A DNA stretch of 64,000 nt from Herbidospora yilanensis (GTDB lineage Bacteria; Actinomycetota; Actinomycetes; Streptosporangiales; Streptosporangiaceae): NCBI RefSeq assembly GCF_001570565.1, contig NZ_BBXE01000013.1, positions 264,984-328,983 on the forward strand. Direction: 5' to 3'. Numbering within the stretch: position 1 is the stretch's first letter; every line of letters begins with the position of its first letter. The notes under the pieces are model-generated. The model did no database searches. It was not told where the DNA came from and saw only the letters and a list, made by a program, of their open reading frames with translations. Made by a program: the position numbers and the translations under genes. This document shows, in pieces, positions 33,006-52,126 of the stretch.

Positions 33006-33007
33006 GA

Positions 33008-33517
33008 CTACAGGCCCCCTTCGTAAGGCATGACCCAGAAGAACTCGCCTTCCGCGTCATATTGGAAGATCAGCGCGGCCCCGCCCGCGCGGAAGACGTC
33101 GACGCCGGTCTGGCGCACCTGGATGACCGAGGTCGAGCCGTCGACGGCGCGGATCTCGGCCTGACCGAAGTCGGTGGAGACCGACTGGGTTCTGATGACG
33201 CAGATCTGCCCGACGAAGTCGTGCCGTGAGGGCACCTTCTCGGGCGCGGGCGTGAGGCGGCGTACCAGGAACGCGGCCCCGAGGCCCAGGACGAGCGCGG
33301 CGGCCAGGACCACCCAGCCGAGCGCCGGAAACAGCACGGATCCGGCCAGCGCGGCGAACCACCCCGTGGCCACGAACCCGGAGACCTCGGCCGCGGGCAG
33401 ACCGTCGAGGTCGACCACGCCGAAGGCCACGAGCAGCCAGAACCCGATGACGACGATCAGCGCGAAGCTGAACAGGACAGCCGGGAAGCCTAATGCGGCG
33501 TCCACGAAATCGCGCAA
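33008..33517 (-). CDS. NfeD/YqiJ-like membrane protein with a C-terminal OB-fold
   Basis: TTG start with AAAGGGGA upstream. It has 3-4 TM helices, then a soluble beta tail (GQICVIRTQSVSTDFGQAEIRAVDGSTSVIQVRQ...). Its stop lies 2 nt before the flotillin ATG. Confidence 0.75.
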   Translation of the reverse strand: MRDFVDAALGFPAVLFSFALIVVIGFWLLVAFGVVDLDGLPAAEVSGFVATGWFAALAGSVLFPALGWVVLAAALVLGLGAAFLVRRLTPAPEKVPSRHDFVGQICVIRTQSVSTDFGQAEIRAVDGSTSVIQVRQTGVDVFRAGGAALIFQYDAEGEFFWVMPYEGGL

Positions 33518-38102: not shown

Positions 38103-39089
38103 CACCCGGGTGATCGCCTCGGCGGCGGCGGGGGCGCGGCCGGCGTCCACGAAGCCGCTGACGATGAACACCCCGCCGGAGAAGAACGGCATGAACCGGG
38201 CCTCGATGCCGTAGCTGGCCCCCATCCGGCCGCGCAGTTCGCGGTTGAGCAGGGAGTCGGGGCCGCCGCCGAGCAGTTCGCCCGCGACCCGGGCCGACGG
38301 CCAGCGCGGGTCGAGCCGGTCGACCGCGAAGCCGCCCAGCACGAGCCGGGTCTGGGGGCCGCCCCGGCCCGGCCGGTGCGTGCGGCCGGGCGTGTCCGCC
38401 GGGAGCGGCGGGACGTCGGCGAGGGGCAGGTCGTCCCCGGCGGGCACGCCGGCGAACGCCTTCGCGGCGGCGTCGGCGGCGCCGGTCCCGGCCAGGTCGC
38501 CGGCCACGACCAGGGTCATCCGGGCGGCGCCGGGCACGACGGCGGCGACGTCGTCCAGGGTCAGCGTGCGCCAGACCGCCTCGGTGCCGCCGAGCGGGCG
38601 GCCGTACCGGGAGCCGGGGGCCAGCACCGACTCGTGCACGAGTTTGTTGCCGAGCGCGATCGGGTCGTCGGACTCCATGGCCCGTTCGGCCACGACCTGG
38701 CGGCGCAGCGCCTCGAACGAGCGGGCCGTCGGCGTGAAGGGGTGCACCATCGCGGCCATCGCCTCGAACAACCGGGGCAGTTCGGCGGCCGGGCAGTCGC
38801 CCATGACGATCGGGCCCCGGTGCCCGCACCGCGTGGTGACCATCCCGCCCGCCAGGGCGAGGTCGCCGACGGTCCCGTCGCGGTGGTGCGGCGCGTCGGC
38901 GTTGAGCAGCGCCGCGTACGCCGCCACCACCCCCTCGGTCTCCGGGCGTTCGACCGCCGTGGTCGGCAGCAGGATCGACAGGGCGGCGGTGGCGACGTGC
39001 CGTCCGGGCATGTCGGCGAGCAGCACCCGCAGGCCGTTGTCCAGCGTGAACGTCTCCGGCTGCGGGAAACGCCAGGTCACAGGATCCAT
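37824..39089 (-). CDS. M16-family peptidase-like subunit lacking the HxxEH zinc motif
   Basis: Internal start MDPVTWRFPQPETFTLDNGLRVLLADMPGR in track ORF 37824..39449-. It has the two-lobe M16 fold signature but no HxxEH. It overlaps the upstream M16 gene by 13 nt. Confidence 0.75.
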   Translation of the reverse strand: MDPVTWRFPQPETFTLDNGLRVLLADMPGRHVATAALSILLPTTAVERPETEGVVAAYAALLNADAPHHRDGTVGDLALAGGMVTTRCGHRGPIVMGDCPAAELPRLFEAMAAMVHPFTPTARSFEALRRQVVAERAMESDDPIALGNKLVHESVLAPGSRYGRPLGGTEAVWRTLTLDDVAAVVPGAARMTLVVAGDLAGTGAADAAAKAFAGVPAGDDLPLADVPPLPADTPGRTHRPGRGGPQTRLVLGGFAVDRLDPRWPSARVAGELLGGGPDSLLNRELRGRMGASYGIEARFMPFFSGGVFIVSGFVDAGRAPAAAEAITRVLTQLREGDVDGGLVTRVRDRMLAAAPELYESTLAVTQQYAELLSCGIDPPEYVDRHLGLLAALDADLVTADFASLVDPALLHTVAVGRFETG

Positions 39090-40258
39090 GAGGGTTCTCC
39101 GGCGGCGTGGAAGGCGACGACCGACGGCCGTGCCATCGGCCCGGCGGCCAGCGCGGCCACCTCGGCGTTGGTGACCCGGCGGACGGCGTCGAGCCGCGTG
39201 GTGACCCCGGCGGCGTCGCCCGACCAGGCGTGTTCCCGGCACAACTCCTCGGCGAGTGTGCGGGCGGCCCCGAGGGCCCCGAGTTGTTCCCTGATGCGCA
39301 GGGCCTTGGCGGCGGCCAGCACGTCGGGCGGCAGCCCGTCGCGGGCCACGGCGGCCAGACGGGCGGCGACGTCCCGTTCGAGCGCGGCCAGGTCGGCCGA
39401 GGCCGGGACCGACAGCTTGACCAGGCCGATCGACGGGCCGAGCGCGCACCGGGCGTGCTGGCCGAGCGCGCCGAGCAGGCCGGGCCGCGAGCCGAGCACC
39501 GACCAGGGGGCGCTGGCCAGCGCCGCCATCACCACCTCGGCGGCGGCCGATCCCGGCGGCAGGGCGAAGGTCAGCCGCACCATGGACGTCGGCTGGCCCT
39601 CCTCGACGTCCTCCCGCGCGCCCAGCGGCTCCCCGGTGACCGGCGGCGGGGCCGGCCGGCCCGAGGGAAACCCGGCCAGGTGGTTCCCGGCGATCTCCAC
39701 GGCCGCGTCGGGGTCGGCCGCGCCGACGACCGACACGACCAGCCGGTCGGCGCCGTAGTGGGCCTCCACGAACGTGGCCACGTCGTCGGGCGTCACGGCG
39801 GCGACCTCGGCGGGGTCGCCGACCGGCGGGCGGCCCGCCGGGTGGTCGCGCCCGAATAACAACCGCAGGCCGCGCCGCAGCCCCGACCCGAACCGGCCGG
39901 GTTCGTCGCGTTCGCGGATCTCCTCCAGCACGATCCGGCGGTGTCCCGCCAGCACGTCCCCGGTCACGCCGCGCCGGCCGCGCCGCACCCGGTCGCCGGC
40001 CTCGGCCAGCATCGCCGGGAGGGTGACCGCCGGGCCGGTCGCCACGTAGTTCGTGGACTCGTAGCCGGTGGTGGCCTGCGCCGAGCCGTTCTCGGACATG
40101 ACGTGCTCGACCACGTGAGCCAGGCCCGACCTGCCGATGGGGTCGTGCAGGGAGCCCGCGCCGTGCCAGGCGTTGACCGCGACGAAGCCGAGCCCCGGGT
40201 CGGGCCGCACGACCAGGGTCGCGCCGCCCGGCAGCCGGCGGGTGACCAGCCCGTCCAT
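39077..40258 (-). CDS. M16-family zinc metallopeptidase (pitrilysin/insulinase type)
   Basis: Internal start MDGLVTRRLPGGATLVV in track ORF 39077..40792-, with the inverted zinc motif GLAHVVEHVM (HxxEH). The start shares one base with the ABC gene stop (TGATG). Confidence 0.8.
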   Translation of the reverse strand: MDGLVTRRLPGGATLVVRPDPGLGFVAVNAWHGAGSLHDPIGRSGLAHVVEHVMSENGSAQATTGYESTNYVATGPAVTLPAMLAEAGDRVRRGRRGVTGDVLAGHRRIVLEEIRERDEPGRFGSGLRRGLRLLFGRDHPAGRPPVGDPAEVAAVTPDDVATFVEAHYGADRLVVSVVGAADPDAAVEIAGNHLAGFPSGRPAPPPVTGEPLGAREDVEEGQPTSMVRLTFALPPGSAAAEVVMAALASAPWSVLGSRPGLLGALGQHARCALGPSIGLVKLSVPASADLAALERDVAARLAAVARDGLPPDVLAAAKALRIREQLGALGAARTLAEELCREHAWSGDAAGVTTRLDAVRRVTNAEVAALAAGPMARPSVVAFHAAGEPSWIL

Positions 40259-41994
40259 CACGCGCCCACGGGGGCGGGGGCCGCCTGGGCGTGCACGAAC
40301 GCCTGGTAGGCGGGGCTGGCCGACGACAACGTGCCGTGGTCGCCCACGGCGGTGACGCGGCCGGCGTCGACGACCACGATCGTGCCGGCCGCGGCGACCG
40401 TCGACAGGCGGTGGGTGACCATCACCACGGCCCGGTCGCGGCCCAGGTCGGCGAGCAGGTCGGTGAGCCGCCGTTCGTTGACGCCGTCCATGTGCGCGGT
40501 CGGTTCGTCGAGCAGCAGGATCTCGGCGTCGGTCAGCAGGGCGCGGGCGATGGACAGGCGCTGCTCCTCGCCGCCGGACATCTGGTCGCCCGCGCCGAGC
40601 ACCGCGTCCAGCCCGGCGGGCAGGGCGCGCACGGCCTGCTCCAGGCCGACGTCGCGCAGCGCGGTCCACAACTCGTCGTCGGACGGGGCGTCCGACCGGC
40701 CCAGCGTCAGGTTCTCGCGCACGGTCATGGACAGGATCGCCGACCCCTGCTCGACCAGGGCGACCCGGCGGCGGGCCTCGGCTGTCGGCCACTCGTGGAG
40801 GGGCGCGCCGAGGAGCTCCACCCGCCCGGCGTCGGTCTCGACGAAGCCCTCCACCACGTTGAGCAGAGTCGACTTGCCCGCTCCCGACGGTCCGACGATC
40901 GCCAGCACCCCGGTGCGCGGCACCTCAAGAGACACCCCGTCGAGCACCGGCTTGCCGCCGAGCGACACCACGACGTCCGAGAGCCGCAGCGCCGGCGCGC
41001 CCGGCGTCACCTCGGGCGCGCGGGCCGCCCCGGCCGGTTCGGTCTCCGCGCCGAGCACCTCGTCGACCCGCCGCGCGGCGGCCTTGCCGACCGCGATCCT
41101 GCCCGCGCCCTGCGCCAGCGCCATCAGCGGGTTGACGAGCTGGAACAGGTACATCAGGAAGGCGATGAACGCCGTGGTCTCCAGCGCGCCCGAGGCCAGG
41201 CGCACCCCGCCCACGGCGAGCACGCCGATGATGGCGACCTGCTGGCCCAGGCCCATCAGCGGGCTGATCGCCGCCTGGGCCCGCGCCGAGCGCACCGCCG
41301 ACGCCGCCGCCTCGCCGATCTCGTTCTCCAGCGGGGCGATGGCCCGGTCCTCCGCCCGGTACGCCTTGACCGTCGTCACCATCGTGAACACCGACTGCGC
41401 GGCCTGGGCCAGCCGGCCGAGCGCGGCCTGCTGCGCCTCGGCCGCCCGGCGCATGCCCGCCAGGAAGGCCCTGATGGCGATCGCGGCCACGACGAACGTG
41501 CCGACCGTCACGGCCAGCATCACCCAGTCGAGGATGCCCATCACGATCAGGTACGCCGTCACCATCACCGCCGAGACCGGCATGACCGTGACGCCCGTGT
41601 CGGTGATCGCGCGCATCTGGGCGGCGTCGGGCCCCATCCGGGAGACCACCTCGCCCACGCCGATCCGCCGGATCACCGGCACCCGCAGGCGCACCGCCCG
41701 GCGCACCACGGCCAGGCGCACGTCCTCGATGGCCCGTTCCCCGGCCGCGCTCAGCAGGTAGGACGACCAGCCTCCGGCGAACGCCCCGGCCAGCACGATC
41801 ACGACGAGCTGCGCCACCGGCCAGACGACGTCCCCGCCCGTCCCGCCGATCACGCCCAGGATGCGGGCGATCAGCAGCGGCGTGACGATCCCGGCCGCGG
41901 CCGAGACCAGGGCGAGCACCACCGAGGCGGCCAGCCGGCCCCGCCGCGCCCTAACCGACCGGGACAACAACCCGAGTGTCGGCGACTCCGCCAT
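40258..41994 (-). CDS. ABC exporter, fused permease and ATPase (type I exporter)
   Basis: Six N-terminal TM helices. Walker A is GPSGAGKST, the signature is MSGGEEQRLSIARAL and Walker B is ILLLDEPTAHMD. Confidence 0.9.
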   Translation of the reverse strand: MAESPTLGLLSRSVRARRGRLAASVVLALVSAAAGIVTPLLIARILGVIGGTGGDVVWPVAQLVVIVLAGAFAGGWSSYLLSAAGERAIEDVRLAVVRRAVRLRVPVIRRIGVGEVVSRMGPDAAQMRAITDTGVTVMPVSAVMVTAYLIVMGILDWVMLAVTVGTFVVAAIAIRAFLAGMRRAAEAQQAALGRLAQAAQSVFTMVTTVKAYRAEDRAIAPLENEIGEAAASAVRSARAQAAISPLMGLGQQVAIIGVLAVGGVRLASGALETTAFIAFLMYLFQLVNPLMALAQGAGRIAVGKAAARRVDEVLGAETEPAGAARAPEVTPGAPALRLSDVVVSLGGKPVLDGVSLEVPRTGVLAIVGPSGAGKSTLLNVVEGFVETDAGRVELLGAPLHEWPTAEARRRVALVEQGSAILSMTVRENLTLGRSDAPSDDELWTALRDVGLEQAVRALPAGLDAVLGAGDQMSGGEEQRLSIARALLTDAEILLLDEPTAHMDGVNERRLTDLLADLGRDRAVVMVTHRLSTVAAAGTIVVVDAGRVTAVGDHGTLSSASPAYQAFVHAQAAPAPVGA

Positions 41995-42970
41995 CGGACC
42001 CTCCCCTCGCGCGCACGGCGGCGAAGATCTCGCGCAGGTCGCGCATGCACTCGTCCTGGCCGTACATGTTGTTGACCGAGCTGGGGTTGACGACCACCTC
42101 GTCCACCCCCAGGTCGTGGTACTTGGCGATCTCGTCGGCGATGTGGTCGGGGTCGCCGTAGACGTACACCCCGGCCTGGACGAGTTCCCTGGCGCCCGAC
42201 ACCGGGTCGGAGGCGTCCACGTCGAGGCCCGCCCTGCGCAGCATGTCGGTGTAGTGGGGGGCCGACAGGTGGCTGATGCTGCCGTACTGGGCCAGCAGGT
42301 TGGCCGACCGGCCGGGCCGGGCGACGGCCGCGTGCACGACCGACACGATGCGCGGCGGCGGCTGCACCCCGGCCGCGCCCTGCGCGACGGCCGGCATGAC
42401 GACGTCCTCGATGTACTTGAGCGGCGTCAGCCACGTCATCGCGAGGTCGCCGCAGCGGCCGGTGACCCGGGCCATGGCGGGCCGCAGCACCCCCGCGCCG
42501 ATCTCCACCGGCGGGCAGTCCATCGGCGGCAGCGCGGCGTCGACGGTGAAGTGCTCTCCCTTGTGCCGCACGTGCTCGTTGCGGGCCAGCCGGCGGGCGA
42601 CGTCGATGAACTCGCCGACGATCGCGGCCGGTCTGGCGTACGGCTCGCCGCGCAACTGCGTCACGTACTGCGGGTAGGCGGCGCCGTAGCCGATCGCCAC
42701 CGGTTGTCCCATGAGCCGGGCCAGCGACCGGGCCTGCAACGCCGCGTCGTACGGGTGGCGCAGCACGATCAGCCCGACGGCCATGCCGATCGAGATCCGG
42801 CAGCCCGTCCCGGCCAGGTAGGCGACCGCCGGGTGGGACTCGATCCGCAACGACTGCCCGAGCCACAACCGCGCCGCGCCGATCTCCTCGGTCAGCCGGC
42901 CGTACGGGACGATCGTGTCCGGGTCGGTCGGCTGGTGCGGGAACATGAACGACACCTTGCGCGAGCTCAC
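41951..42970 (-). CDS. LLM-class (luciferase-like) flavin/F420-dependent oxidoreductase, candidate LanJ-type dehydroamino-acid reductase
   Basis: The C-terminal ~339 aa of track ORF 41951..43954-. The GTG start overlaps the upstream stop (GTGA), giving VSSRKVSFMFPHQP... (first beta-strand of the LLM TIM barrel). It continues ...LWLGQSL...IGMAVGLIVLRHPYDAA...GDPDHIADEIAKYHDLGVDEVVV. Confidence 0.75.
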   Translation of the reverse strand: MSSRKVSFMFPHQPTDPDTIVPYGRLTEEIGAARLWLGQSLRIESHPAVAYLAGTGCRISIGMAVGLIVLRHPYDAALQARSLARLMGQPVAIGYGAAYPQYVTQLRGEPYARPAAIVGEFIDVARRLARNEHVRHKGEHFTVDAALPPMDCPPVEIGAGVLRPAMARVTGRCGDLAMTWLTPLKYIEDVVMPAVAQGAAGVQPPPRIVSVVHAAVARPGRSANLLAQYGSISHLSAPHYTDMLRRAGLDVDASDPVSGARELVQAGVYVYGDPDHIADEIAKYHDLGVDEVVVNPSSVNNMYGQDECMRDLREIFAAVRARGGSDGGVADTRVVVPVG

Positions 42971-43938
42971 GACGCCACCTCCACCAGCGGGCTGTCGGCG
43001 TTGCGGTGCGGCGCGAGCGGGTCGGCGTTCGCCTCGGCGAGCGCCTCGGCGACGGCCTCGGCCAGGTCGCGGCCGTCGAACAGGTGCCGCGCCACGCCGT
43101 CGGCGACCGCCATCGTGCGGTGCTGGCCCAGGCTCATGCGGTCCCATCCGGGCCGGGTGTCGCGCGGCTCCCAGCCGTACGCGACGCCGTCGGCGATCGG
43201 GCTGGTCATCACCGAGTGGGCCGGGTTCAGGCCGGGCAGGTTCCGCACCGCCGCGACGAGGCCGCCCACGGCGTGCCACGACTCCTCGGTCAGGTAGACG
43301 ACGATCGCGTCCCGCCTCGGATACTGGTCGGCCTTCGCCAGCACCTTCGCCCGGTAGGTCGCCCCGGCGCCCTCCAGCCGACTCAGCACCGCGTGCCACA
43401 CGGCGGGCGCCATCGACGGCTCGTCGACGTGCAGGTAGATCCGCAGCATGTGGCCGCCGGCCCCGTGGCCGCCCGCCGAGCCGTTGACCAGGAAGAACCC
43501 GGGAGAGAGCGTCGGCCTGATCGCGGGCAGCTCCAGCGTGGTGCGGGTGCCGATCTCCGGCAGCGGCGTCGGGCTCTCGCCCCCGGGGATGCGCAGGCGC
43601 ACCCGGCCGACGTCGAAGAGCACGTGCCGGCCGAGCGGGCCGTCGATCATGGCCGACCGAACGACCGCCGGGGTGCGGCTGGTGCGGTGGGGGGTGGCCT
43701 CCCGCAGGAGGTCCTCGAAGTCGTAGTCGCGGCGCGGGTCCCACTCGCCGGTCCTGACGGCCGAGCCGCTGTGCCAGTGGCGGTAGAGCACCGGCCCGAG
43801 GTCCTGGCGCAACCGGGTGCGGTTGTCGCCCGTGACCGTCTCGTCCCCGACGGTCACCGACCGGGTGTCGGGGTCGAGGCGCAGGTCGCCGAGCAGGTGG
43901 TCGAGCCGGTCGAGGAGACCCTGGTGGGCGATGGTCAT
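42967..43938 (-). CDS. HopA1-effector-family protein, candidate phospho-Ser/Thr lyase (LxmY/TvaD-like)
   Basis: Internal start MTIAHQGLLDRLDHLL in track ORF 42967..44727-, 323 aa. It sits between an APH-type kinase and an LLM reductase, as in class V lanthipeptide and thioamitide clusters. Motifs such as MLRIYLHV, YRAKV and PRRDAIVVYL match my memory of the HopA1 family, but this was not verified by search. Confidence 0.6.
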   Translation of the reverse strand: MTIAHQGLLDRLDHLLGDLRLDPDTRSVTVGDETVTGDNRTRLRQDLGPVLYRHWHSGSAVRTGEWDPRRDYDFEDLLREATPHRTSRTPAVVRSAMIDGPLGRHVLFDVGRVRLRIPGGESPTPLPEIGTRTTLELPAIRPTLSPGFFLVNGSAGGHGAGGHMLRIYLHVDEPSMAPAVWHAVLSRLEGAGATYRAKVLAKADQYPRRDAIVVYLTEESWHAVGGLVAAVRNLPGLNPAHSVMTSPIADGVAYGWEPRDTRPGWDRMSLGQHRTMAVADGVARHLFDGRDLAEAVAEALAEANADPLAPHRNADSPLVEVAS

Positions 43939-43940
43939 GA

Positions 43941-45047
43941 TCAGTTCTCTCCAAGGCCGATGGTGGGGGCGAACTTCTCCGGCGTCGTGAGCGCGTTGCG
44001 GCCGATCCCGGCCATGCCGCGCTCCACCGCGCTGAGCCGCGCGCCGTGCACGGCGCCCGCGAGCAGCCGGTCGAAGAAGTGCCACCCGATGTAGCCGGTG
44101 GCCCGCACGGCCAGGCCCTCGTCCGGCTCGGCGACCTCCCGGTAGCCCTGCCAGAAGCGGCGGATGTGCTCGCGCACGGCCGACAGGTGCCGGTCGCCCG
44201 CGGCGACGATCGCCTCGTGGGCGGCGCCCGGCGACAGGCCCGTGTCCAGGTCGAGCTCGCGGAACATGCGCGCCACCGCGTGGTGCACGAACTCGCCCGC
44301 GAAGGCCCCGACGTCCCGGGCCGGGTCGTGGTGCCGGAACTCCTCCCAGTCGATGACGTACAGGTCGTCGCCGGAGCACAGGAACTGGTCCAGGCGCAGG
44401 TCGCCGTGGGTGACGGTGGCGGGGGCGGCGGCCGAGACCCGGTGCAGCGCGGCGAGCGCCTCGACCAGCACCTTGTCGTGCTGGAGCAGCGCCCACGCCT
44501 CGACCTCGCCGCCGCTGCAGTTGGCGTAGTCCTCGGGGCTCAGCGCGTAGAAGGCGTTGGCCCGGCGGTCGTCGGCCGACTCGGGCAGGTCCTCGGCGCG
44601 CGGCAGCGAGTGCACCTCGCCCAGCACCCGGCCCATCCGGTGGGCCAGCTCGACGTCGAGCTCCCCGGCCGCCAGCAGGTCGGAGGCGGCGCGGGAGTCC
44701 GGCACGTACTCGAAGACCAGCAGGCATTCGCCGGCGTCGGCGCCGTGGAAGGCCGGCACCCGCAGCTCGGCCGTCGCACGGCCGGCGATCAGCCGCTGGA
44801 AGGCCAGCACCCGGTCCATCCGGGCGGCGGCGTGCGCGCGGTCCCCCCGCAGGCGCTTGACGAACAGGTCGGGTCCCTCGGCGGTCGGCACCAGCCAGTT
44901 GTCGTTGCGGCCGAGGAAGCCGCGCATGCCCTCCACGATGGGCGTGGCCCCGCTGAGCGAGGCGACCGCCTGGACGAACTCCTCCGGGCGCGACACCGGC
45001 CGGGCCGCGACCAGCCGGGTCGTCTGTGTTTCCTCTTTCACGTCCAT
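43941..45047 (-). CDS. APH/choline-kinase-fold phosphotransferase, candidate RiPP Ser/Thr kinase (LxmK/TvaC-like)
   Basis: The catalytic loop is VTHGDLRLDQFL and the metal-binding segment is YVIDWEEF. The nucleotide-lobe segment reads DLFVKRL...LLVFEYVP. The start is taken at MDVKEETQ (M18 of track ORF 43941..45098-) and is uncertain. Confidence 0.75.
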   Translation of the reverse strand: MDVKEETQTTRLVAARPVSRPEEFVQAVASLSGATPIVEGMRGFLGRNDNWLVPTAEGPDLFVKRLRGDRAHAAARMDRVLAFQRLIAGRATAELRVPAFHGADAGECLLVFEYVPDSRAASDLLAAGELDVELAHRMGRVLGEVHSLPRAEDLPESADDRRANAFYALSPEDYANCSGGEVEAWALLQHDKVLVEALAALHRVSAAAPATVTHGDLRLDQFLCSGDDLYVIDWEEFRHHDPARDVGAFAGEFVHHAVARMFRELDLDTGLSPGAAHEAIVAAGDRHLSAVREHIRRFWQGYREVAEPDEGLAVRATGYIGWHFFDRLLAGAVHGARLSAVERGMAGIGRNALTTPEKFAPTIGLGEN

Positions 45048-45246
45048 GCGCCGAAATCTATGGACGCGGAAAGGCCCCGCGACATCCCAGGAAAGCACCG
45101 GCAGCAGGCATATGGCAGATGCCTGACAGATCCTTGCCGGCCGGTGTTCCCGAATGGCAGTCGGCCGGTGACGCGGGCGCGCAAATCCTCGTCATTTCGC
45201 CAGGACCGGCGGCCTAGTTTCCTTTGTTCCGAAGGAAGGAGATCTC

Positions 45247-45387
45247 ATGTCCAGCGAACTCATCGCGGGATACGCGAACTACGCCAGCACCGAATCGGTC
45301 CTGAGCGAGAACACGACCGCCGAGTGGTGGCCGATCACGTCGTACACCGTCACGCTCTCCACGACGACCACCTCGATCTGGATCTGA
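45247..45387 (+). CDS. RiPP precursor peptide 1 (46 aa)
   Basis: Not in the track because it is under 60 aa. SD GGAAGGAGA lies 6 nt upstream. The sequence is MSSELIAGYANYASTESVLSENTTAEWWPITSYTVTLSTTTTSIWI. It shares its leader with four downstream paralogs. Confidence 0.8.
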   Translation: MSSELIAGYANYASTESVLSENTTAEWWPITSYTVTLSTTTTSIWI

Positions 45388-45397
45388 GGGGCGCGCC

Positions 45398-45538
45398 GTG
45401 TCCGAGCTGATCGCGGGTTACGCCAATTACGCCAGCACCGAGGCGGTGCTCCAGGAACGTTCCGAGGCCGGCCGCTGGATCGAGTGGACCCTCTGGTTCA
45501 CCGTCACCATCTCCGTCACCCCCACCTCCTCCCTCTGA
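45398..45538 (+). CDS. RiPP precursor peptide 2 (46 aa, GTG start)
   Basis: (M)SELIAGYANYASTEAVLQERSEAGRWIEWTLWFTVTISVTPTSSL. GAGGGG lies upstream, and the ORF starts 10 nt after the peptide 1 stop. Confidence 0.75.
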   Translation: MSELIAGYANYASTEAVLQERSEAGRWIEWTLWFTVTISVTPTSSL

Positions 45539-45559
45539 ACCTGCTGAGAAAGGAAGACC

Positions 45560-45709
45560 ATGTCCGAGCTGATCGCCGGTTACGCCAACTACGCCTCCAC
45601 CGAGGCCATCCTCCAGGAGCGGCAGCTCGCCGCCCGTGAGCCCGAGACCGGCCTGTTCACGCTCACCATCACGATCTCGCTGACCATCACGGTCACGATC
45701 AGCCTCTGA
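45560..45709 (+). CDS. RiPP precursor peptide 3 (49 aa)
   Basis: MSELIAGYANYASTEAILQERQLAAREPETGLFTLTITISLTITVTISL. The SD is GAAAGGAAG. Confidence 0.8.
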   Translation: MSELIAGYANYASTEAILQERQLAAREPETGLFTLTITISLTITVTISL

Positions 45710-45722
45710 CCAGGAGGTCCCG

Positions 45723-45872
45723 ATGCACGAGCTCGTCGCCGGATACGCGAACTATGCCTCGGCCGAGGCGATCCTGCGGGAACAGGCCGCCGGGCGTGTT
45801 CTCGAAGCGGGTCTCTTCTTCTCGGTGACCTTCAGCTTCACCCACAGCAATTCCATCTCCTTCTCCATCTGA
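45723..45872 (+). CDS. RiPP precursor peptide 4 (49 aa)
   Basis: MHELVAGYANYASAEAILREQAAGRVLEAGLFFSVTFSFTHSNSISFSI. The SD is AGGAGG. Confidence 0.8.
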   Translation: MHELVAGYANYASAEAILREQAAGRVLEAGLFFSVTFSFTHSNSISFSI

Positions 45873-45890
45873 CCGAAAGGAAACGGGCGA

Positions 45891-46046
45891 ATGAACGACC
45901 TCATCGCCGGATACGCCAACTACGCCTCCACCGAGGCCATCCTGCACGAGCGGCAGATCGCGAGCCGCGACGCCGAATCGATCAGCGCGACCGTGACGGT
46001 CACCTGGACCCTCACCGTCTCCTGGTCCTACTCCTGGTCCTACTAG
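45891..46046 (+). CDS. RiPP precursor peptide 5 (51 aa)
   Basis: MNDLIAGYANYASTEAILHERQIASRDAESISATVTVTWTLTVSWSYSWSY. The SD is GAAAGGAAA. Its TAG stop shares the CTAG palindrome with the convergent LuxR gene stop. Confidence 0.8.
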   Translation: MNDLIAGYANYASTEAILHERQIASRDAESISATVTVTWTLTVSWSYSWSY

Positions 46047-48934
46047 GAATCGCGCAGCACCGCGGCGTGGTCCCCCAGCGCCCCCCGGTTGGAAAGCCCG
46101 GTCTTGGCCAGCAGGCTGGCCACGTGCTTCTCCACCGTCCGCGGTGAGATGAAAAGTCGTCGGCCGATCTCGACGTTGCCGAGCCGTTCGGCGAGCAACA
46201 TCAGAACCTGGTGCTCGCGCACGGTCACGCCGAGGTTGCGCAGTTCGCCGGGCACCCCCTCCCGCCCGGGCCGACGGTACGACACCGCCGCCCCCGCCTG
46301 GCGCAGCAACGTGCGGCAGGCCGCCGTCACCGCCGTCACGCCCGCCTCGTGGAAGTGGTCCTCGGCCGCCCGCAACCACACCACCGGCTCGCCCCATCCG
46401 TCGGCCAGCGCGGCCTCCGCGACCAGCCGCGCCCCCAGGTGCGCCGCCTGCGGGAACGGCTCCCCGGCCGCCCGCGCCTCCGCCATCGTCCGCCCGGCCG
46501 CCGCGTGCTCGCCCCGCCCGCCCAGCAACACCGCGCGGGCGAGCAGCAGGAAGTGCCGGTTCCACCGCAGTTCGGCGGCCGGCTGGGCGTGCACGGCCGC
46601 CCAGTCGTCGAGGGTGAGCTCGCCGGCGAGCGCGCCCAGCAGCACGGCCAGGCCGTAGCGGCCCGTCATGTAGTAGAGCGTGGGATGTTCGTCCTCCCAC
46701 GCGCGTGCCCTGGCGAGCAACTCCGCCGCCTGGTCGCGGTCCTCCTCCAGCAGGGCGCAGAACGCCTGGCAGAGGCCGTACACGACCGGGGTGTGCAGGC
46801 TCTGCTCACCGCCCCACCTGCGGAAATCGGCCAGGGCGTGCTCCATGGCCTCGCGCCGCCCCTGGTGGGCGGCCAGTGTCGCCTGCGCCATCAGCAGATA
46901 CTGGGTGTAGGCCGTGTGCCCCAGCCGGATCGTGGTCTCGACGCACGCGGCGGCGGTCTCGGCGGCGCTCTTGTACTCCGCCCGCAGCACCCGCGTCATC
47001 ACCAGGGACGCCTCCGCGCTGTGCACCAGGCTGATCGCGCCCGCCTGGGTGGCCGCCCGCAGCACCTCCTCAAGCGGATCGCTCTCCCCGGTACGCATGT
47101 TGTGGTTGGCCGCCAGCCGGTACATCGCCCGCAACCGCCACAGGCTCAGCCCGTGCACCTCGGCGATGGCCTTCATCCGGGTCAGGCACCGGTCGGGCTC
47201 GCCGAACCCGTGCACCCTGGTCAGCATGGCCAGCCGCTCCCACGCCTGGCAGGCCACCTCGGGCAGCGGCAGCCGCTCGGCCACCTCGGCGGCGCGTCGC
47301 GACAGCGCCTCGGCGGCGGCCATCTCGGCCGGCCCGGCTTCGTTGACGCCGTGGTCGGGGAACAACAACTGCGCCTCGATCACGTCGATCGCGGCGCCGC
47401 GCGCCTCGTCGGGCAGGCTCTCCAGCGACCGCCGCACGGCCGCCACGTGGGCGCGCCCGGCGGGCAACTCGCCGATCTCGGCGGCCACCCACGCCAGCTT
47501 GGTGCGCAGGTCGACCTCCTGCCACAGCCCCATCGACAGGTCGTCGGACGCGCACTCCCTGGCCAGCTCCAGCGCCCGGTCGGCCCGGCCGCCCTCGGTC
47601 AGCGCGTGCAGCAACCGCTGGAGCGTGTGGGCCCGCGCCGGGGCGGGGCCGCCCTCCTGGAGCCGGTCGGCCCGTTCGAGCAGGGTCGCCGCGACGTCGG
47701 CGGCGCCGCCGTTCAGGTAACGTTCGCCCGCCTCGGCCAGCAACGCCCCGGCCGTGTGGACCTCACCGGCCGTCAGCCGCAGGCTCGCGGCGATCTGGAG
47801 CCACTCGTCCGGGAGCCCCGGATACAGGCGTTCGACCGACCGGGCCGCCTGGCGGGCCAGCCGGGCCCGCTCCGCCGGGATCAGCTCCGCCGACAACGCC
47901 TCGGCGGTCAGGGCGTGGCGGAAGGCGTACCATTCCCCGGCCGGTTCGTCGGGCACGACGAGCCGCGCCGTGGTGGCCGCCCGCAGGATCGCCTCGACCC
48001 CCCGGTCGTCGAGGCCGGAGACGTCCTGGATGACCGGCACCGGGAAGCGGTTCCCGAACACCGCCCCGGTCAGCAGCAGCTCGTGCGCCGCCGGCACGAG
48101 CGTCGCCATGCGCGCCGCGATCCCGCGCGCCGCCGAGTTCGGCCCCCGCGCGCCCGGGTCGTCTTTCAGGGCGTCGACGAACTCCTCGACCAAATACGGC
48201 ACGCCGTCCGTCTCGGCCACGAGGCGGTCCATCACTCCGTCCGGCAGCACGTCCGGCAACTCGTCCGGCCGTGCCAGGCAGGCCGCGACGAGCCGGCGGG
48301 TCTCGTCGGGCGACAGCGGCGGCAACTCGACGACCTCCGCCACCTGGCGGCGGGCGCAGTCGTCGGCCACGGTCCGCGCCGGGCCGGCGTGCCCGCGCAG
48401 GTTCACCAGGAGCAACGCCGGCACGTCGGCGAGGTTGTCGGCCAGGTATTCGACCACGCCCAGCGTGCCCGCGTCGGCGTCGTGCAGGTCCTCCAGCACC
48501 AGCACGCCGCCGCGCGACTCCCGTCCGAGAACGGTCAGGAGCCGCAACACGGCCTCGGCGAGGATGACCGCCGACTCCAGCCGCCGCGCGCCCCCCTCCT
48601 CCCGCCACTCGGGCACCAGCGTCGTCAACGCAGGGAGATAGGGCCGCAACAGCGGATCGTCGGGCGGCCTGCGCGACCGGGCGAGCGAGAACAACGCCTC
48701 GCTCAGCGGCTTGAACGGGATGTCCGCGCTGACCGCGCTACCCCGCCCGCGCAGGCTCACCAGCCCCAGGTCACCGGCCCGCCGGAGCACCTCCGACGTC
48801 AACCGGGACTTCCCGATGCCGGGATCGCCGACCAGGAAGACGGTCTTCCCGCGACCGTCCCCGACCTGCTCCAGACACCTGTCGAACAGCGCTTTCTCGG
48901 GTTCCCGCCCGATCAGGACCGGCGACCTGGACAC
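46043..48934 (-). CDS. LAL-type LuxR-family regulator (AAA ATPase + TPR-like repeats + LuxR HTH)
   Basis: GTG start gives VSRSPVLIGREPEKALFDRCLEQVGDGRGKTVFLVGDPGIGKSRL (Walker A), and Walker B is VLVLEDLHDAD. The C-terminal HTH reads LTVREHQVLMLLAERLGNVEIGRRLFISPRTVEKHVASLLAKTGLSNR. Confidence 0.85.
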   Translation of the reverse strand: MSRSPVLIGREPEKALFDRCLEQVGDGRGKTVFLVGDPGIGKSRLTSEVLRRAGDLGLVSLRGRGSAVSADIPFKPLSEALFSLARSRRPPDDPLLRPYLPALTTLVPEWREEGGARRLESAVILAEAVLRLLTVLGRESRGGVLVLEDLHDADAGTLGVVEYLADNLADVPALLLVNLRGHAGPARTVADDCARRQVAEVVELPPLSPDETRRLVAACLARPDELPDVLPDGVMDRLVAETDGVPYLVEEFVDALKDDPGARGPNSAARGIAARMATLVPAAHELLLTGAVFGNRFPVPVIQDVSGLDDRGVEAILRAATTARLVVPDEPAGEWYAFRHALTAEALSAELIPAERARLARQAARSVERLYPGLPDEWLQIAASLRLTAGEVHTAGALLAEAGERYLNGGAADVAATLLERADRLQEGGPAPARAHTLQRLLHALTEGGRADRALELARECASDDLSMGLWQEVDLRTKLAWVAAEIGELPAGRAHVAAVRRSLESLPDEARGAAIDVIEAQLLFPDHGVNEAGPAEMAAAEALSRRAAEVAERLPLPEVACQAWERLAMLTRVHGFGEPDRCLTRMKAIAEVHGLSLWRLRAMYRLAANHNMRTGESDPLEEVLRAATQAGAISLVHSAEASLVMTRVLRAEYKSAAETAAACVETTIRLGHTAYTQYLLMAQATLAAHQGRREAMEHALADFRRWGGEQSLHTPVVYGLCQAFCALLEEDRDQAAELLARARAWEDEHPTLYYMTGRYGLAVLLGALAGELTLDDWAAVHAQPAAELRWNRHFLLLARAVLLGGRGEHAAAGRTMAEARAAGEPFPQAAHLGARLVAEAALADGWGEPVVWLRAAEDHFHEAGVTAVTAACRTLLRQAGAAVSYRRPGREGVPGELRNLGVTVREHQVLMLLAERLGNVEIGRRLFISPRTVEKHVASLLAKTGLSNRGALGDHAAVLRDS

Positions 48935-48935
48935 G

Positions 48936-49136
48936 TTACTTGTGCGACACCGAGACGGGGTTGACGGGGTCGCCCTCAAGTCCGAGCGCGATGGTCGCGC
49001 CCGCGGCGGTGTCGGGCGACTTAAGGATCAGGGTCGCGCCCGCGGTCAGCCCCGCCAGCACGAGCGCCCGGGTGAGCGGCCTGATGTTGGCCAGCCGCGC
49101 GCCGGCCGCGAGCACCGGATTCTGCTCAGTGTTCAT
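48936..49136 (-). CDS. Small hypothetical protein (66 aa) translationally coupled to the LanM-like gene
   Basis: MNTEQNPVLAAGARLANIRPLTRALVLAGLTAGATLILKSPDTAAGATIALGLEGDPVNPVSVSHK. The ATG overlaps the LanM-like stop (ATGA) and GC3 is high. It has one hydrophobic segment and no Cys. Confidence 0.55.
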   Translation of the reverse strand: MNTEQNPVLAAGARLANIRPLTRALVLAGLTAGATLILKSPDTAAGATIALGLEGDPVNPVSVSHK

Positions 49137-51634
49137 CTGTTCTTCGTCGCCTCTCGAAAGGGGTGCAGCAACAGCACCGATGGAATCTGTCCGGGCGCGG
49201 CCAGCCGCAGCAGACCGTGCCCGATCCCGGCCAGCCCGAGGAGCAGGCCGGGTGTGGAGACGTGGCCGGGAGTGGCGCATCGTGCTCCGTGGCGGCGCAG
49301 GGACGCGAGCACCGAAGGGCCCTCACGTTCCTGGAGTTCGGGCACTCCGAGCCTGCCCACACGTCCGTGGCACAGGCTGTCGTCGGGCAGGAGCACGCTG
49401 GGCGGGGCCGTCCGGCGGGTCAGCAGCCCGCCGCACCAGGTGTGGCCCTCGACCGGGCCGATCGGGACGTCGAGCCCGTACCGGCCGAGCGCCCAGGCGA
49501 TGCCGGCCCGTCCGAACGCGAAGCCGTCGGGCAGATCCGGCGGCAGGTCCCGGCCGGTCAGCAGGTCGGCGCAGGCCGCCGCGACCGTCTCCGCCCCGAT
49601 GGCGAGCATCGCCGCCAGGCACCCGGCCAGCCCGTCGTGCACGTCGAGGGCGCTGCGCTCGGAGATCGTCGCCTCGGCCAGCTCGACCGCCCGGCCGGAC
49701 CACGCGAGCACCTCCGCGTCGCCGAGCAGGTGCCCGATCTGGGCCAGGCCGTAGGCCATGCCGCCCAGCCCGCCGAACCCGCCGCACCCCACGATCTCGG
49801 CCAGCAGCGGTTCGGCGGCCAGGGCGTCCAGCAGCGCGGGCGACGGGGAGAGGGCCTGCCGCGCGGTCTCCAGGAAGTCGCCGCGCCCGGTGACCGTGCC
49901 GGCCTGGGCCAGGAACAGCGCCACGCCGAGATAGCCGGAGGCCAGACCGCCGCCCAGGGGCATGACGGCGAGGCCGCCCTCGTCGTCGGCCTCCAGCCCC
50001 AGCCAGTTGACGGCCGCGCCCCGGCGGTGCGCGCTCGCGAGCAGTTCATCGGCGATCTTGACGGCCGCCGCCAGATAATCTCCGGTCTCGGCTTCGGACG
50101 GCTGATCGGGGCGTGGCGGATCGCCATCGACCCCCTTCGGGTCATGGCTTGGGGCCCCCGCCCGCGTTGCCAGTGACGCGCGAATGATCCACTCCTGCTT
50201 GCCCCGGTCGGCAGGCCCCAGCCCCGTCAGCTTCTCGCCCACCGATTCACGGCCCGTGCGGGCCAACTTCCACGGCACCCCGATGCCGTCCCCAGCGTAG
50301 ATCGTAAGGGAATCCGGCGATGTCCAGAAATAGGGGACATCGCATGAATTTATGCCCTCTGCCTCGAACGGCGCCGCCGCCCGCTGGAGGGCATCGTGCC
50401 CCGACAGCTCCATGAGCAGGGAAAGTGCGCGCTTACCTGAGTCGTCAAGGGCGGATTCCCATAACAGCTCGGAATAGATTCGGGTGGGCCGCAGAAGCAG
50501 TCGCACCCGCATGGGCCCGAACCGGGGGAACAACAACCGGTCCAGGTCGTGCCGCCCCTCCGCGATGGCGTCATAGGCCGCGCGAAAGCCACCGACCAGG
50601 TCGTCCACGTACGCGGCGGGGTCGGCAGGCCGCCCGTCGAGCCGGGGACGATTGGCGGCCCCCGCGAACGGACGCGGCCCGCGCACCGGCCGCATCAGAT
50701 CGGTGTCGCGGTCCTCCCACACGATCCCCGAATAGGCGTGCACCCCTGGGTCGCCGCCCAGCGCCGAGACGTCCTGGACCGCCTGGTCGCCGATCAGCAA
50801 CCTGGGCAGAATCGCGGTCCGGTCGACCGAACGCACGAGCGCGTCGTGGGCCGGATCGGCCGCGTCCGCGCTCAGCACAGGGTGGAACAGCGTCTCGGCG
50901 TCGACGACGACGGGCTGGTCGCCGGCCGCGACGACGTTCTCGAAATGGAGGTCGATCGTGTCCAGCGCGTGCGCCAGCGCGAGCAGCGCCCCCATCCGGC
51001 GATGGAACCGCGCCACCTCCGCCGCGGACGCGCAGGGCCGCGCCTCGGCGAACTCGACCCAGCCGTGCTCCTCACGGGCGACGACCCGGAGCGTACGCAG
51101 CCCGAGGCCGGGCACCCGGCCGTTCAGCCAGCCGATCGCGGCGTTCAGGCACAGATGCGCCTCGACCGGTCGCGGCCGGTAGACGACCCGGGCCCCCGAG
51201 GCGAACCGCACCACCGAGACCGACCGGCCACCGGAATGCGGATCACCGGCGGCCGAGAACGCCACCGGCCCTCCCGCTTCTCCCGGCATCAGGCCGCGCA
51301 CGGCCCTCTCGTCCCGCCGGAACCGGTCCAGCAACTCCATCGCGTGGCGTAACGCCAGGTCGGCCAGGTCGGCCACGGCCGGGTCCGGCTCACGCGCGGC
51401 CCGCCGGGCGAAGCCGGCGTACCTCTCCTCCGGCGTCGCCCCCGGCAACTCGCCCCGATCTCCGGCCTCGGCCAGCCGTACGGCCAGCGCCGGCGCGGCC
51501 CGCTCCGACAACCGGCCCACGAGATCCGCCGCGAAGGCCTCGGCGAACGCGGCCGCTCCGGGATACGCGGCCACCAGCCGGTCGGCGGCACGGCGGGCGA
51601 CGGGTTCGACGACGGCGGAGAAAGGGTGCGTCAC
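49133..51634 (-). CDS. Short (833 aa) LanM-like class II lanthipeptide synthetase (DUF4135 dehydratase-like + LanC-like cyclase domain)
   Basis: GTG start. The kinase-like dehydratase core reads VVYRPRPVEAHL...DLHFENVVAAGDQPVVVDAETLF. The C-terminal LanC-like repeats are GLASGYLGVALFL, GGFGGLGGMAYGL, HDGLAGCLAAM and GFAFGRAGIAWAL. Putative Zn ligands are HTWCGG and SLCHGRVG, followed by GLLLGLAGIGHGLL. Confidence 0.8.
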   Translation of the reverse strand: MTHPFSAVVEPVARRAADRLVAAYPGAAAFAEAFAADLVGRLSERAAPALAVRLAEAGDRGELPGATPEERYAGFARRAAREPDPAVADLADLALRHAMELLDRFRRDERAVRGLMPGEAGGPVAFSAAGDPHSGGRSVSVVRFASGARVVYRPRPVEAHLCLNAAIGWLNGRVPGLGLRTLRVVAREEHGWVEFAEARPCASAAEVARFHRRMGALLALAHALDTIDLHFENVVAAGDQPVVVDAETLFHPVLSADAADPAHDALVRSVDRTAILPRLLIGDQAVQDVSALGGDPGVHAYSGIVWEDRDTDLMRPVRGPRPFAGAANRPRLDGRPADPAAYVDDLVGGFRAAYDAIAEGRHDLDRLLFPRFGPMRVRLLLRPTRIYSELLWESALDDSGKRALSLLMELSGHDALQRAAAPFEAEGINSCDVPYFWTSPDSLTIYAGDGIGVPWKLARTGRESVGEKLTGLGPADRGKQEWIIRASLATRAGAPSHDPKGVDGDPPRPDQPSEAETGDYLAAAVKIADELLASAHRRGAAVNWLGLEADDEGGLAVMPLGGGLASGYLGVALFLAQAGTVTGRGDFLETARQALSPSPALLDALAAEPLLAEIVGCGGFGGLGGMAYGLAQIGHLLGDAEVLAWSGRAVELAEATISERSALDVHDGLAGCLAAMLAIGAETVAAACADLLTGRDLPPDLPDGFAFGRAGIAWALGRYGLDVPIGPVEGHTWCGGLLTRRTAPPSVLLPDDSLCHGRVGRLGVPELQEREGPSVLASLRRHGARCATPGHVSTPGLLLGLAGIGHGLLRLAAPGQIPSVLLLHPFREATKNR

Positions 51635-51694
51635 GCCCGCGATTATGTCGACCTGAAGTCCCGGAATGTCCCGGTCGTGCCCGGGAACCCGGGT

Positions 51695-52126
51695 TCACTT
51701 CCGGGGAGTCTCCTTGGGACCGGTGATGGGCACCCGCGTGGCCGACTCCTTCTTGGTCTCGCCCAGCTTGACGGTGACCTCCAGGATCCCCTTGTCGTAG
51801 ACGGCGGTGACCTCTTCCTCCATCGCCGTCGGCGGCAGCGCCACGGAGCGGGTCAGGCTGCCGTACCTGAACTCGCTGTGCTCCGCGTCCGACTCCTCGC
51901 GGTGCCGTTCGGCGTGTACGGTCAGAATCCCGTCGGCCACCGTGACCTCGACGTCCTTCTCCGGGTCGACGCCGGGCAGTTCGGCCCGCAGGACGTATTC
52001 GCCGTCCCGCATGACGTCCTCGAACCGTACGGGCTGCTGCATCGCCCGCAAGCCCAGGAACGGGTTCTCGAACAGATCGAAGATGTCGGGCAGCAGTGCC
52101 TTCTCCCGGCGCATGAGCGTGCTCAT
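51695..52126 (-). CDS. Hsp20/alpha-crystallin small heat-shock protein
   Basis: The alpha-crystallin domain reads YVLRAELPGVDPEKDVEVTVADGILTVHAER...FRYGSLTRSVALP...AVYDKGILEVTV. Confidence 0.9.
   Translation of the reverse strand: MSTLMRREKALLPDIFDLFENPFLGLRAMQQPVRFEDVMRDGEYVLRAELPGVDPEKDVEVTVADGILTVHAERHREESDAEHSEFRYGSLTRSVALPPTAMEEEVTAVYDKGILEVTVKLGETKKESATRVPITGPKETPRK

Follow-up and report, generated by a model that had tools for sequence, protein, structure and literature searches.

An apparently undescribed actinomycete gene triad of a LanM-like lanthipeptide synthetase, a mostly cysteine-free peptide and a LAL-family regulator

We analysed a stretch of 64,000 nucleotides from the actinomycete Herbidospora yilanensis (hereafter the window; GC content ~72%), in which the gene of a LanM-like class II lanthipeptide synthetase is followed by an open reading frame (ORF) for a 66-residue peptide, orf66, and by the gene of a LAL-family LuxR-type regulator. 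The LanM-like protein encoded in the window is 100% identical to a H. yilanensis protein. Judged from gene order and homology, the three genes are one copy of a widespread three-gene actinomycete cassette, here called the triad, which is apparently undescribed. A first-pass annotation of this DNA had discussed the enzyme and orf66, but had overlooked the third partner, the LAL regulator, as well as the family-wide spread of the arrangement. Our literature search returned no description of a LanM/peptide/LAL triad; a 2015 survey of actinobacterial lanthipeptide-like clusters was outside its reach, so that a prior mention is possible.

With moderate confidence, we propose that the triad is a portable unit, separate from the array of peptide precursors that adjoins it in Herbidospora. 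In this proposal, orf66 would be a LanA-type substrate that undergoes dehydration without cyclisation, and the enzyme would use its cyclase domain as a zinc scaffold. The product would more probably act with the LAL than serve as a secreted antibiotic. The triad and its candidate promoter element are located as follows.

49133..51634, minus strand: LanM-like class II lanthipeptide synthetase, 833 amino acids (dehydratase domain ~1-500, LanC-like domain ~516-833)
48936..49136, minus strand: orf66, Cys-free LanA-like peptide and proposed cognate substrate, 66 amino acids, C-terminus ...NPVSVSHK
46043..48934, minus strand: LAL-family LuxR-type regulator, 963 amino acids, with an AAA_16 ATPase domain and a C-terminal GerE helix-turn-helix (HTH) domain; GTG start
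51642..51647, minus strand: candidate -10 box CATAAT, ending 7 nucleotides (nt) before the GTG of the LanM-like gene

Architecture and distribution of the triad

The three genes are tightly packed. The start codon of orf66 overlaps the stop codon of the LanM-like gene as ATGA (...AAG AAC AGA TGA / ATG AAC ACT), and a single nucleotide separates the TAA of orf66 from the GTG of the LAL gene, whose start was set from the sequence and from the gene call in Herbidospora cretacea. On re-check, the coordinates and frames of the LanM-like ORF and of orf66, their lengths of 833 and 66 amino acids and the ATGA overlap were all correct as first annotated. The CATAAT box recurs at an equal distance from the LanM gene in H. 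cretacea and Sphaerimonospora, and reads CATACT in Streptosporangium. The box suggests a separate, possibly leaderless, transcript for the triad.

The regulator has the layout expected of a LAL, namely an N-terminal AAA_16 ATPase (Pfam, 1.5e-21, residues 22-191) and a C-terminal GerE HTH (5.7e-10, residues 919-968; both in the numbering of the 978-residue ORF) within a protein of ~900-1000 amino acids.

Homologues were sought in one genome per species, and 80 further loci were found. Counts of loci refer to n = 83, those of LanM residues to n = 87 and those of peptides to n = 84. The homologue of Streptomyces sp. CB01881 (locus L087), which has another gene order and other motifs, was excluded from the family statistics. 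A LanM of 38-88% identity, a small ORF and a LAL occur together in ~75 of the 83 loci, distributed over at least 15 genera, which include Streptosporangium, Nonomuraea, Kribbella, Kutzneria, Saccharothrix, Actinosynnema, Lentzea, Umezawaea, Kitasatospora, Micromonospora and Rhodococcus. The LAL homologue is full-length (40-93% identity; 40-64% in the scan of the downstream flank) and lies within ~1 kb downstream of the LanM gene in ~75 of the 83; the loci without a downstream LAL are mostly short contigs.

Most copies of the triad stand alone, as in Kribbella, Actinosynnema and Kitasatospora, where it is found by itself among housekeeping genes. In Micromonospora peucetia it abuts a non-ribosomal peptide synthetase (NRPS). 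Only in Herbidospora and Sphaerimonospora does it lie beside a cluster for a peptide made on the ribosome and modified after translation (RiPP) that encodes an LxmK kinase and a HopA1-family lyase. The neighbourhood seen in the window is shared by H. cretacea, which has the closest homologue (88% identity), and in Sphaerimonospora (LanM 50% identical) the same trio stands next to the same LxmK/HopA1 cluster, there with four precursors. In Streptosporangium and Sphaerisporangium (L003, 16329-22895; L004-L006 and L008), the triad is located directly upstream of a canonical class II cluster. This cluster encodes a LanT, a LanM of 1075 amino acids with catalytic His and Asp both in place, and at least five Cys-rich LanAs. 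These LanAs end in ...GCCPTGTWC, and their leader (ELVRQWKNPQAR..HPAGEI) and the leader of the triad peptides are of one type.

The peptide gene of the triad adjoins the regulator gene. Clustering of all flanking proteins at the triad loci revealed no other conserved neighbour, no conserved transporter or protease, and no export or import genes linked to the triad. As an analogy only, we considered RRNPP-like peptide-pheromone cassettes, whose small pro-peptide gene neighbours that of a cytoplasmic receptor-regulator and whose peptide is exported, processed and taken up again.

The small peptides

In the triad loci, the gap between LanM and LAL is filled by an ORF of 58-105 amino acids with a high GC content at third codon positions (GC3; 0.91 in orf66). 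A homologous small ORF directly follows the LanM gene in ~80 loci, and the 4-nt overlap of LanM stop and peptide start is the commonest arrangement (32 of 83 loci). Two tandem small-peptide genes are present between LanM and LAL in a few loci (L036, 10727-11212; L045, 10695-11249; L079, 10702-11113). In the last of these, from Amycolatopsis, the LAL is 7 kb off, with a methyltransferase and transporters between.

Most of the peptides have a leader in which ...DHPAGE[IM].L precedes a basic stretch and ...LAG (HPAGE[IM]..L....LAG). It can be aligned with the HPAGEISLDDARVVGG leader of the canonical Streptosporangium LanAs, GG cleavage site included. A Kitasatospora peptide shares 18 of 30 residues with a canonical LanA (E 1e-9) and gives a sub-threshold match to TIGR03898, the mersacidin/lichenicidin leader model. 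This was the sole match obtained when orf66 and 26 family peptides were compared with Pfam and NCBIfam, which assigned no family to any of them.

The region behind the leader consists of 20-40 mostly hydrophobic residues and ends in a Ser/Thr motif, such as TTVSAPG, STWPTI, FPTMTVP or DTTVSDK, and PVSVSHK in Herbidospora. At least two Ser/Thr residues are present among the last 12 in 83 of the 84 peptides, and the pattern [ST]x[ST] occurs in this stretch in 81% of them, compared with 23% expected by composition. Cys, on the other hand, is found after the leader motif in only 9 of 84 peptides (75, or ~89%, are Cys-free), and the Cys positions in some Kribbella peptides are Gly, Ala or Phe in sister sequences. 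The absence of Cys from orf66 and from all five neighbouring precursors, which had been noted at first pass, was confirmed from the sequences. The LanM-like enzyme has neither a Cys-bearing substrate nor the catalytic His of the cyclase, so that its product cannot by definition be a lanthipeptide.

Searching 1.84 billion representative proteins with orf66 by phmmer matched just four proteins, so that the wider peptide family is detectable by synteny or profile only. An independent profile search of 5.8 billion proteins returned 247 clusters of 58-81 amino acids, all named 'hypothetical protein' and devoid of a Pfam domain; of the 120 clusters listed, 107 are Cys-free. No second match to the peptide family was found in the 64-kb window.

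We considered two further readings of these peptides. A link to the leader of the DUF6229 'actinopeptins' (PMC13509491) was dropped, as Pfam gave no supporting match. Many family peptides, though not all, carry a basic-plus-hydrophobic, signal-like stretch. Its interpretation as a signal peptide is weakened by Kitasatospora and Streptomyces members that lack it, and by the LAG, which aligns with the GG site of LanAs. Of the roles originally offered for the 66-residue product, that of another substrate of the enzyme is supported by its conserved position and by the LanA-type leaders of its relatives, from which orf66 would be the cognate precursor.

The LanM-like enzyme and a proposed mechanism

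The LanM-like protein scores 458.8 bits against TIGR03897 (cut-off 304), which places it among the class II LanM enzymes. Pfam detects DUF4135 (6e-86, residues 88-438) and LANC_like (1e-15, residues 561-683). The AlphaFold2 model is confident (pLDDT 92.5), and its best Foldseek matches are LicM2 (E 5e-34, TM-score 0.73) and CylM (2e-28). Together with the alignment to CylM described below, these results bear out the first-pass identification of the protein and of its motifs, which are DLHFEN (228-233), W733-C734 and C755-H756-G757.

With 832-833 residues, the Herbidospora enzyme is the shortest member of a family with a median length of ~1000. Comparison with the seven full-length relatives closest to it shows a deficit of ~40 residues at the N-terminus and of ~26 inside the dehydratase domain. 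The cyclase domain is short by another 40-57 residues, in four deletions (after 679, 724, 746 and 764) that bracket the Zn-ligand motifs. The shortfall had been placed on the dehydratase side; this is correct for the N-terminal part, but the dehydratase is not the sole site.

Residues were mapped by alignment with CylM and LicM2 through the family profile. Those required for phosphorylation and elimination are defined by mutagenesis of CylM (PMC4550811). They and the Zn ligands correspond to the Herbidospora residues as follows.

CylM D252, H254: Herbidospora D131, H133
CylM K274 (kinase Lys): Herbidospora R153
CylM D347, H349, N352: Herbidospora D228, H230, N233
CylM D364: Herbidospora D245
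CylM R506, T512: Herbidospora R378, T384
CylM Zn ligands C875, C911, H912: Herbidospora C734, C755, H756

Across the 87 triad LanMs, the dehydratase residues are invariant, save for K/R at the K274 position and T/S at the T512 position. All 87 retain the Trp-Cys and Cys-His of the zinc site. The active-site acid is a different matter. This His (NisC H212, CylM H835, LanCL1 H219) is the proton donor to the enolate, and its mutation is deleterious in NisC, SpaC, LctM, ProcM and LanCL1/2 (PMC9934072). In the Herbidospora enzyme it is replaced by Phe707, with the motif GF[GS]HG changed to GFAFG, and over the family the position is occupied by His in 11 proteins, Arg in 56, Phe in 10 and other residues in 10. 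The residue after the first Zn Cys, which stabilises the enolate in other enzymes (CylM K876, LanCL1 H277; PMC9934072), is Gly735 in Herbidospora and variable among the 87. The equivalent of NisC D141 is Asp in only 15 of them. The canonical LanM adjoining the Streptosporangium triad has Asp, His and His at the D141, acid-His and 735 positions. We also asked whether the LanMs that keep the His are those with Cys-containing peptides, and found no correlation (1 of 10 versus 8 of 70 peptides with Cys).

On this alignment, the dehydratase looks competent, and the cyclase domain appears to retain its metal site without the catalytic acid. Hence the cyclase, described as intact in the first-pass annotation, is so with respect to its Zn ligands (C734, C755, H756), but not with respect to the acid His and residue 735. 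The alignment check that had been suggested for a pseudo-enzyme came out in favour of the protein, with Zn ligands and kinase/lyase residues present, the kinase Lys as Arg153. Of the explanations once offered for a cyclase domain among Cys-free peptides, a vestigial or scaffold function is favoured by the loss of the acid His in 76 of 87 enzymes with full retention of the Zn ligands.

For the pair H. yilanensis and H. cretacea, the ratio of non-synonymous to synonymous substitution rates (dN/dS) amounts to 0.34 in the LanM-like gene (0.32 and 0.34 in its halves), 0.22 in orf66 and 0.26 in the LAL gene. Neighbouring biosynthetic genes span 0.18-0.36. As the triad values are within the neighbours' range and the fold is confidently predicted, we treat the Herbidospora triad as functional, with the caveat of a single species pair.

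We propose the following mechanism as the most economical one. The kinase/lyase domain would phosphorylate Ser/Thr residues near the C-terminus of orf66 (Ser61 and Ser63 in ...PVSVSHK), and elimination of phosphate would yield dehydroalanines. No thioether ring would form on orf66, since Cys is missing from the peptide and the active-site acid from the cyclase domain. The cyclase-like domain would be retained as a Zn-binding structural or peptide-holding module. The dehydrated peptide would then act with the LAL as ligand, cofactor or target. In Herbidospora, the triad may in this way gate the adjoining RiPP cluster. The layout of the genes and its conservation, the state of the residues and purifying selection are shown by the sequences described above; dehydration, the lack of cyclisation and the regulatory role are what we infer from them.

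Alternatively, the zinc site could be catalytic. Mycothiol, free Cys or the Cys of another peptide or protein, for example the LAL, would then be added to the dehydro residues of orf66, with an intermolecular thioether as the product, of the kind that eukaryotic LanCL enzymes form with glutathione. The strict conservation of the Zn ligands and of the preceding Trp, although ~89% of the cognate peptides are Cys-free, would be accounted for by this chemistry. Purifying selection on both domains is in line with it, and LanCL1 demonstrates that intermolecular thia-Michael addition is feasible on a LanC fold (PMC9934072). Yet the proton-donor His is Phe in Herbidospora and lost in 76 of 87 enzymes, position 735 and the D141 equivalent are unconserved, and loops and helices around the zinc site are deleted in Herbidospora. 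LanCL-like addition of a small thiol, one of the options raised at first pass, depends on the very same His (PMC9934072) and is disfavoured. Overall, we regard a catalytic zinc site as unlikely, albeit the best placed of the alternatives to the scaffold reading.

It is less likely still that the Herbidospora copy is a decaying remnant, or pseudo-enzyme, of a formerly functional triad. The enzyme is the shortest of its family (832-833 against ~1000 residues), the leader of orf66 is truncated, and the LanM-like protein evolves faster than its neighbours (88% amino acid identity, compared with 93-97%). Evidence against decay comes from unbroken reading frames in two species, dN/dS values of 0.34 (enzyme) and 0.22 (peptide), a full set of catalytic residues in the dehydratase and a confidently predicted fold.

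Neighbouring genes, regulatory role and related systems

The genes outside ~35.8-51.7 kb have no relation to the clusters discussed here. The triad is flanked by the following features.

51695-52126, minus strand: Hsp20 gene (PF00011, 2e-17), between an NAD kinase gene and the LanM-like gene
45247..46046, plus strand: five tandem Cys-free precursors of 46-51 amino acids with LxmA-type leaders, convergent with the LAL gene; outside the triad
43941-45098, minus strand: LxmK kinase (NF038156, 363.9 bits, cut-off 315); outside the triad
42967-43938, minus strand: HopA1-family lyase (PF17914, 6.6e-41); outside the triad
41951-42964, minus strand: F420-type LLM (luciferase-like) oxidoreductase (PF00296, TIGR03564); outside the triad
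40258-41994, minus strand: ABC exporter
37824-40261, minus strand: two M16 peptidases
35790-38102, plus strand: second LuxR-type regulator

The Hsp20 gene is missing at the equivalent position in H. cretacea, where the gap measures 76 nt; this difference is a recent insertion or deletion directly at the triad promoter. Further off, an unrelated operon (26278-33517, minus strand) encodes a 1573-residue DUF3686/DUF7902/AAA ATPase, followed by proteins of 669 and 169 amino acids without a Pfam match. The operon is possibly defence-like.

The five precursors have LxmA-type leaders (ELIAGYANYASTEAIL), with weak matches to NF038146 (LxmA_leader; best 4e-5, below cut-off). In their Cys-free cores, Ser/Thr alternates with hydrophobic residues, for example TLTITISLTITVTISL and TVTVTWTLTVSWSYSWSY. 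An LxmK and a HopA1-family lyase beside LxmA-leader precursors are hallmarks of class V, whereas the core Cys needed for lanthionine (Lan) or AviCys is absent. From its gene content, the array is class-V-like in the dehydration step only and would be unable to make lanthionine. LxmK, the HopA1-family lyase and the LLM oxidoreductase are expected to be the machinery that acts on the five precursors. If the oxidoreductase is LxmJ-like, by analogy the products might carry D-residues at alternate positions.

H. cretacea (L001, 15568-16532) carries the same array with six copies, and Sphaerimonospora sp. CA-214678 (L002, 16156-16815) with four, including ...LLSITITITITITITI. The cores are hypervariable and the leader is nearly invariant. 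The divergent promoter between lxmK and the first precursor (45099-45246) contains repeats of ATGGCAG and CTTGCCGG that recur at the equivalent sites of both relatives, and these words are candidate regulator-binding sites. On inspection of the LanM promoter and the lxmK/precursor promoter for a shared word, only these cluster-specific repeats (ATGGCAG, CTTGCCGG) were seen.

The proximity of triad and array raises the question whether the LanM-like enzyme modifies the five precursors, alone or with LxmK/HopA1, as a hybrid of class II and class V, with orf66 as an accessory or immunity factor. In three genomes (the window, H. cretacea and Sphaerimonospora), the genes are found within 6 kb of one another, and the cores of the precursors have a very high Ser/Thr content. 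However, the precursors have LxmA-type leaders and a complete LxmK/HopA1 pair alongside, and the relatives of orf66 carry leaders of the LanA type. Moreover, the triad occurs in >70 loci without such precursors, and the Streptosporangium copy adjoins a cluster with its own LanM. The link between LanM and array that was implied at first pass is thus unsupported, and we judge a hybrid system as improbable as decay of the triad.

The last and marginally least credible alternative, an ordinary class II synthetase with a Cys-containing LanA elsewhere in the genome and an unrelated orf66, could appeal to LanMs such as ProcM that use distantly encoded precursors (PMC7268733) and to the fact that only 64 kb of the genome was read, but the adjacent gene with its LanA-type leader is conserved, the active-site losses are family-wide, and orf66 is the window's only match to the peptide family. 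The earlier suggestion of a substrate encoded elsewhere is accordingly not needed, given an orf66-type ORF with a LanA-type leader after LanM in ~80 loci.

Returning to the scaffold reading, what might the modified peptide do? Antibiotic gene clusters are commonly switched by LAL regulators, few of whose ligands are known. Gene order makes a regulatory role together with the LAL plausible. We consider a product acting with the LAL more probable than an exported antibiotic, because the triad has no export or processing genes, its peptide gene is translationally coupled 1:1 to the enzyme gene instead of being over-expressed, a LAL is the regular partner, and the adjoining clusters are unrelated to one another. 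A more far-reaching version holds that the triad is a self-contained peptide-signalling or autoregulatory module. Here, the LanM would dehydrate the C-terminal [ST]x[ST] motif of a peptide co-translated with it in stoichiometric amount. Either this modified peptide or a complex that it forms with the Zn-bearing cyclase-like domain would switch the LAL, which in turn would control the adjoining cluster. This version is speculative and in our view rather unlikely, though less so than a catalytic zinc site. If it were true, the target of the module would be a class-V-like RiPP cluster in Herbidospora, a class II cluster in Streptosporangium and an NRPS in Micromonospora. The RiPP would then be an intracellular or quorum signal instead of an antibiotic, and the LanC fold would have found a use other than cyclisation.

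Several points weigh against our proposal. Its steps are all deduced from sequence, and the dN/dS values stem from one species pair. The connection to the LAL is one of synteny and translational coupling only, and the neighbouring cluster has another LuxR-type regulator (35790-38102). In the Herbidospora enzyme the kinase Lys (CylM K274) is replaced by Arg153. The Herbidospora orf66 is devoid of the N-terminal half of the leader and reads NPVLAAGARL where its relatives have NPAGSIMIRL; this truncation, with an enzyme trimmed at the N-terminus and around the zinc site, could mean impaired recognition in this lineage. Finally, a purely structural role does not explain why a family that has no Cys substrates conserves its Zn ligands perfectly.

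RODEO-type pipelines for lanthipeptide mining discard precursor candidates without Cys (PMC7268733). Therefore, several hundred LanM genes and at least 247 peptide clusters have been labelled 'type 2 lanthipeptide synthetase' and 'hypothetical protein', respectively. Recognising the triad avoids assigning the LanM-like gene to the adjacent precursor array. The family also represents a natural experiment on the LanC fold, in which the zinc site is kept and the proton donor lost, and which bears on roles of the metal beyond thiol activation. Lastly, the triad is a candidate for a peptide-based regulatory circuit with a LAL in actinomycetes.

Compared with known class II systems, the triad LanM shares the two-domain fold, the kinase/lyase residues and the Cys-Cys-His zinc site with CylM, LicM2, LctM and ProcM, and most triad peptides share their LanA-type leader. 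It differs in that ~89% of its peptides are Cys-free and the acid His and D141 equivalent are mostly lost. In addition, the peptide gene comes after that of the enzyme and overlaps it by 4 nt, LanT and protease are missing, and a LAL is attached. Cys-free peptides associated with LanM have been mentioned for Streptomyces LanM+LanKC clusters and as ProcM-type 'cyanotin' cores of cyanobacteria (PMC7268733, PMC11251773). These reports likewise pair a LanM with precursors incapable of lanthionine formation, in other types of cluster and with no mention of a LAL triad. LanCL1/2 resemble the triad cyclase in their LanC fold and zinc site, and their action on dehydro residues creates no intramolecular ring (PMC9934072). 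Unlike the triad enzyme, they are stand-alone proteins and need His219, the equivalent of Phe707; their enolate-stabilising His277 corresponds to Gly735.

The triad is similar to the bicereucin and lactocin S systems in that a LanM would act as a dehydratase on Ser/Thr outside rings. In those systems, dehydration by LanM is followed by LanJ reduction to D-amino acids, and the clusters contain a reductase and export genes and give antimicrobial products. The triad has neither reductase nor export; for this comparison, the F420-type oxidoreductase of the window belongs to the LxmK/HopA1 operon and not to the triad. SapB of Streptomyces is made by the class III enzyme RamC from RamS, a Cys-bearing peptide that acquires rings, with ABC exporters and RamR, a LuxR-family response regulator. 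The triad departs from this system in its class II enzyme, in its LAL in place of a response regulator and in having no conserved exporter. Like SapB, whose role is developmental or signalling and not that of an antibiotic, it nevertheless consists of an actinomycete synthetase/peptide pair tied to a regulator of the LuxR family.

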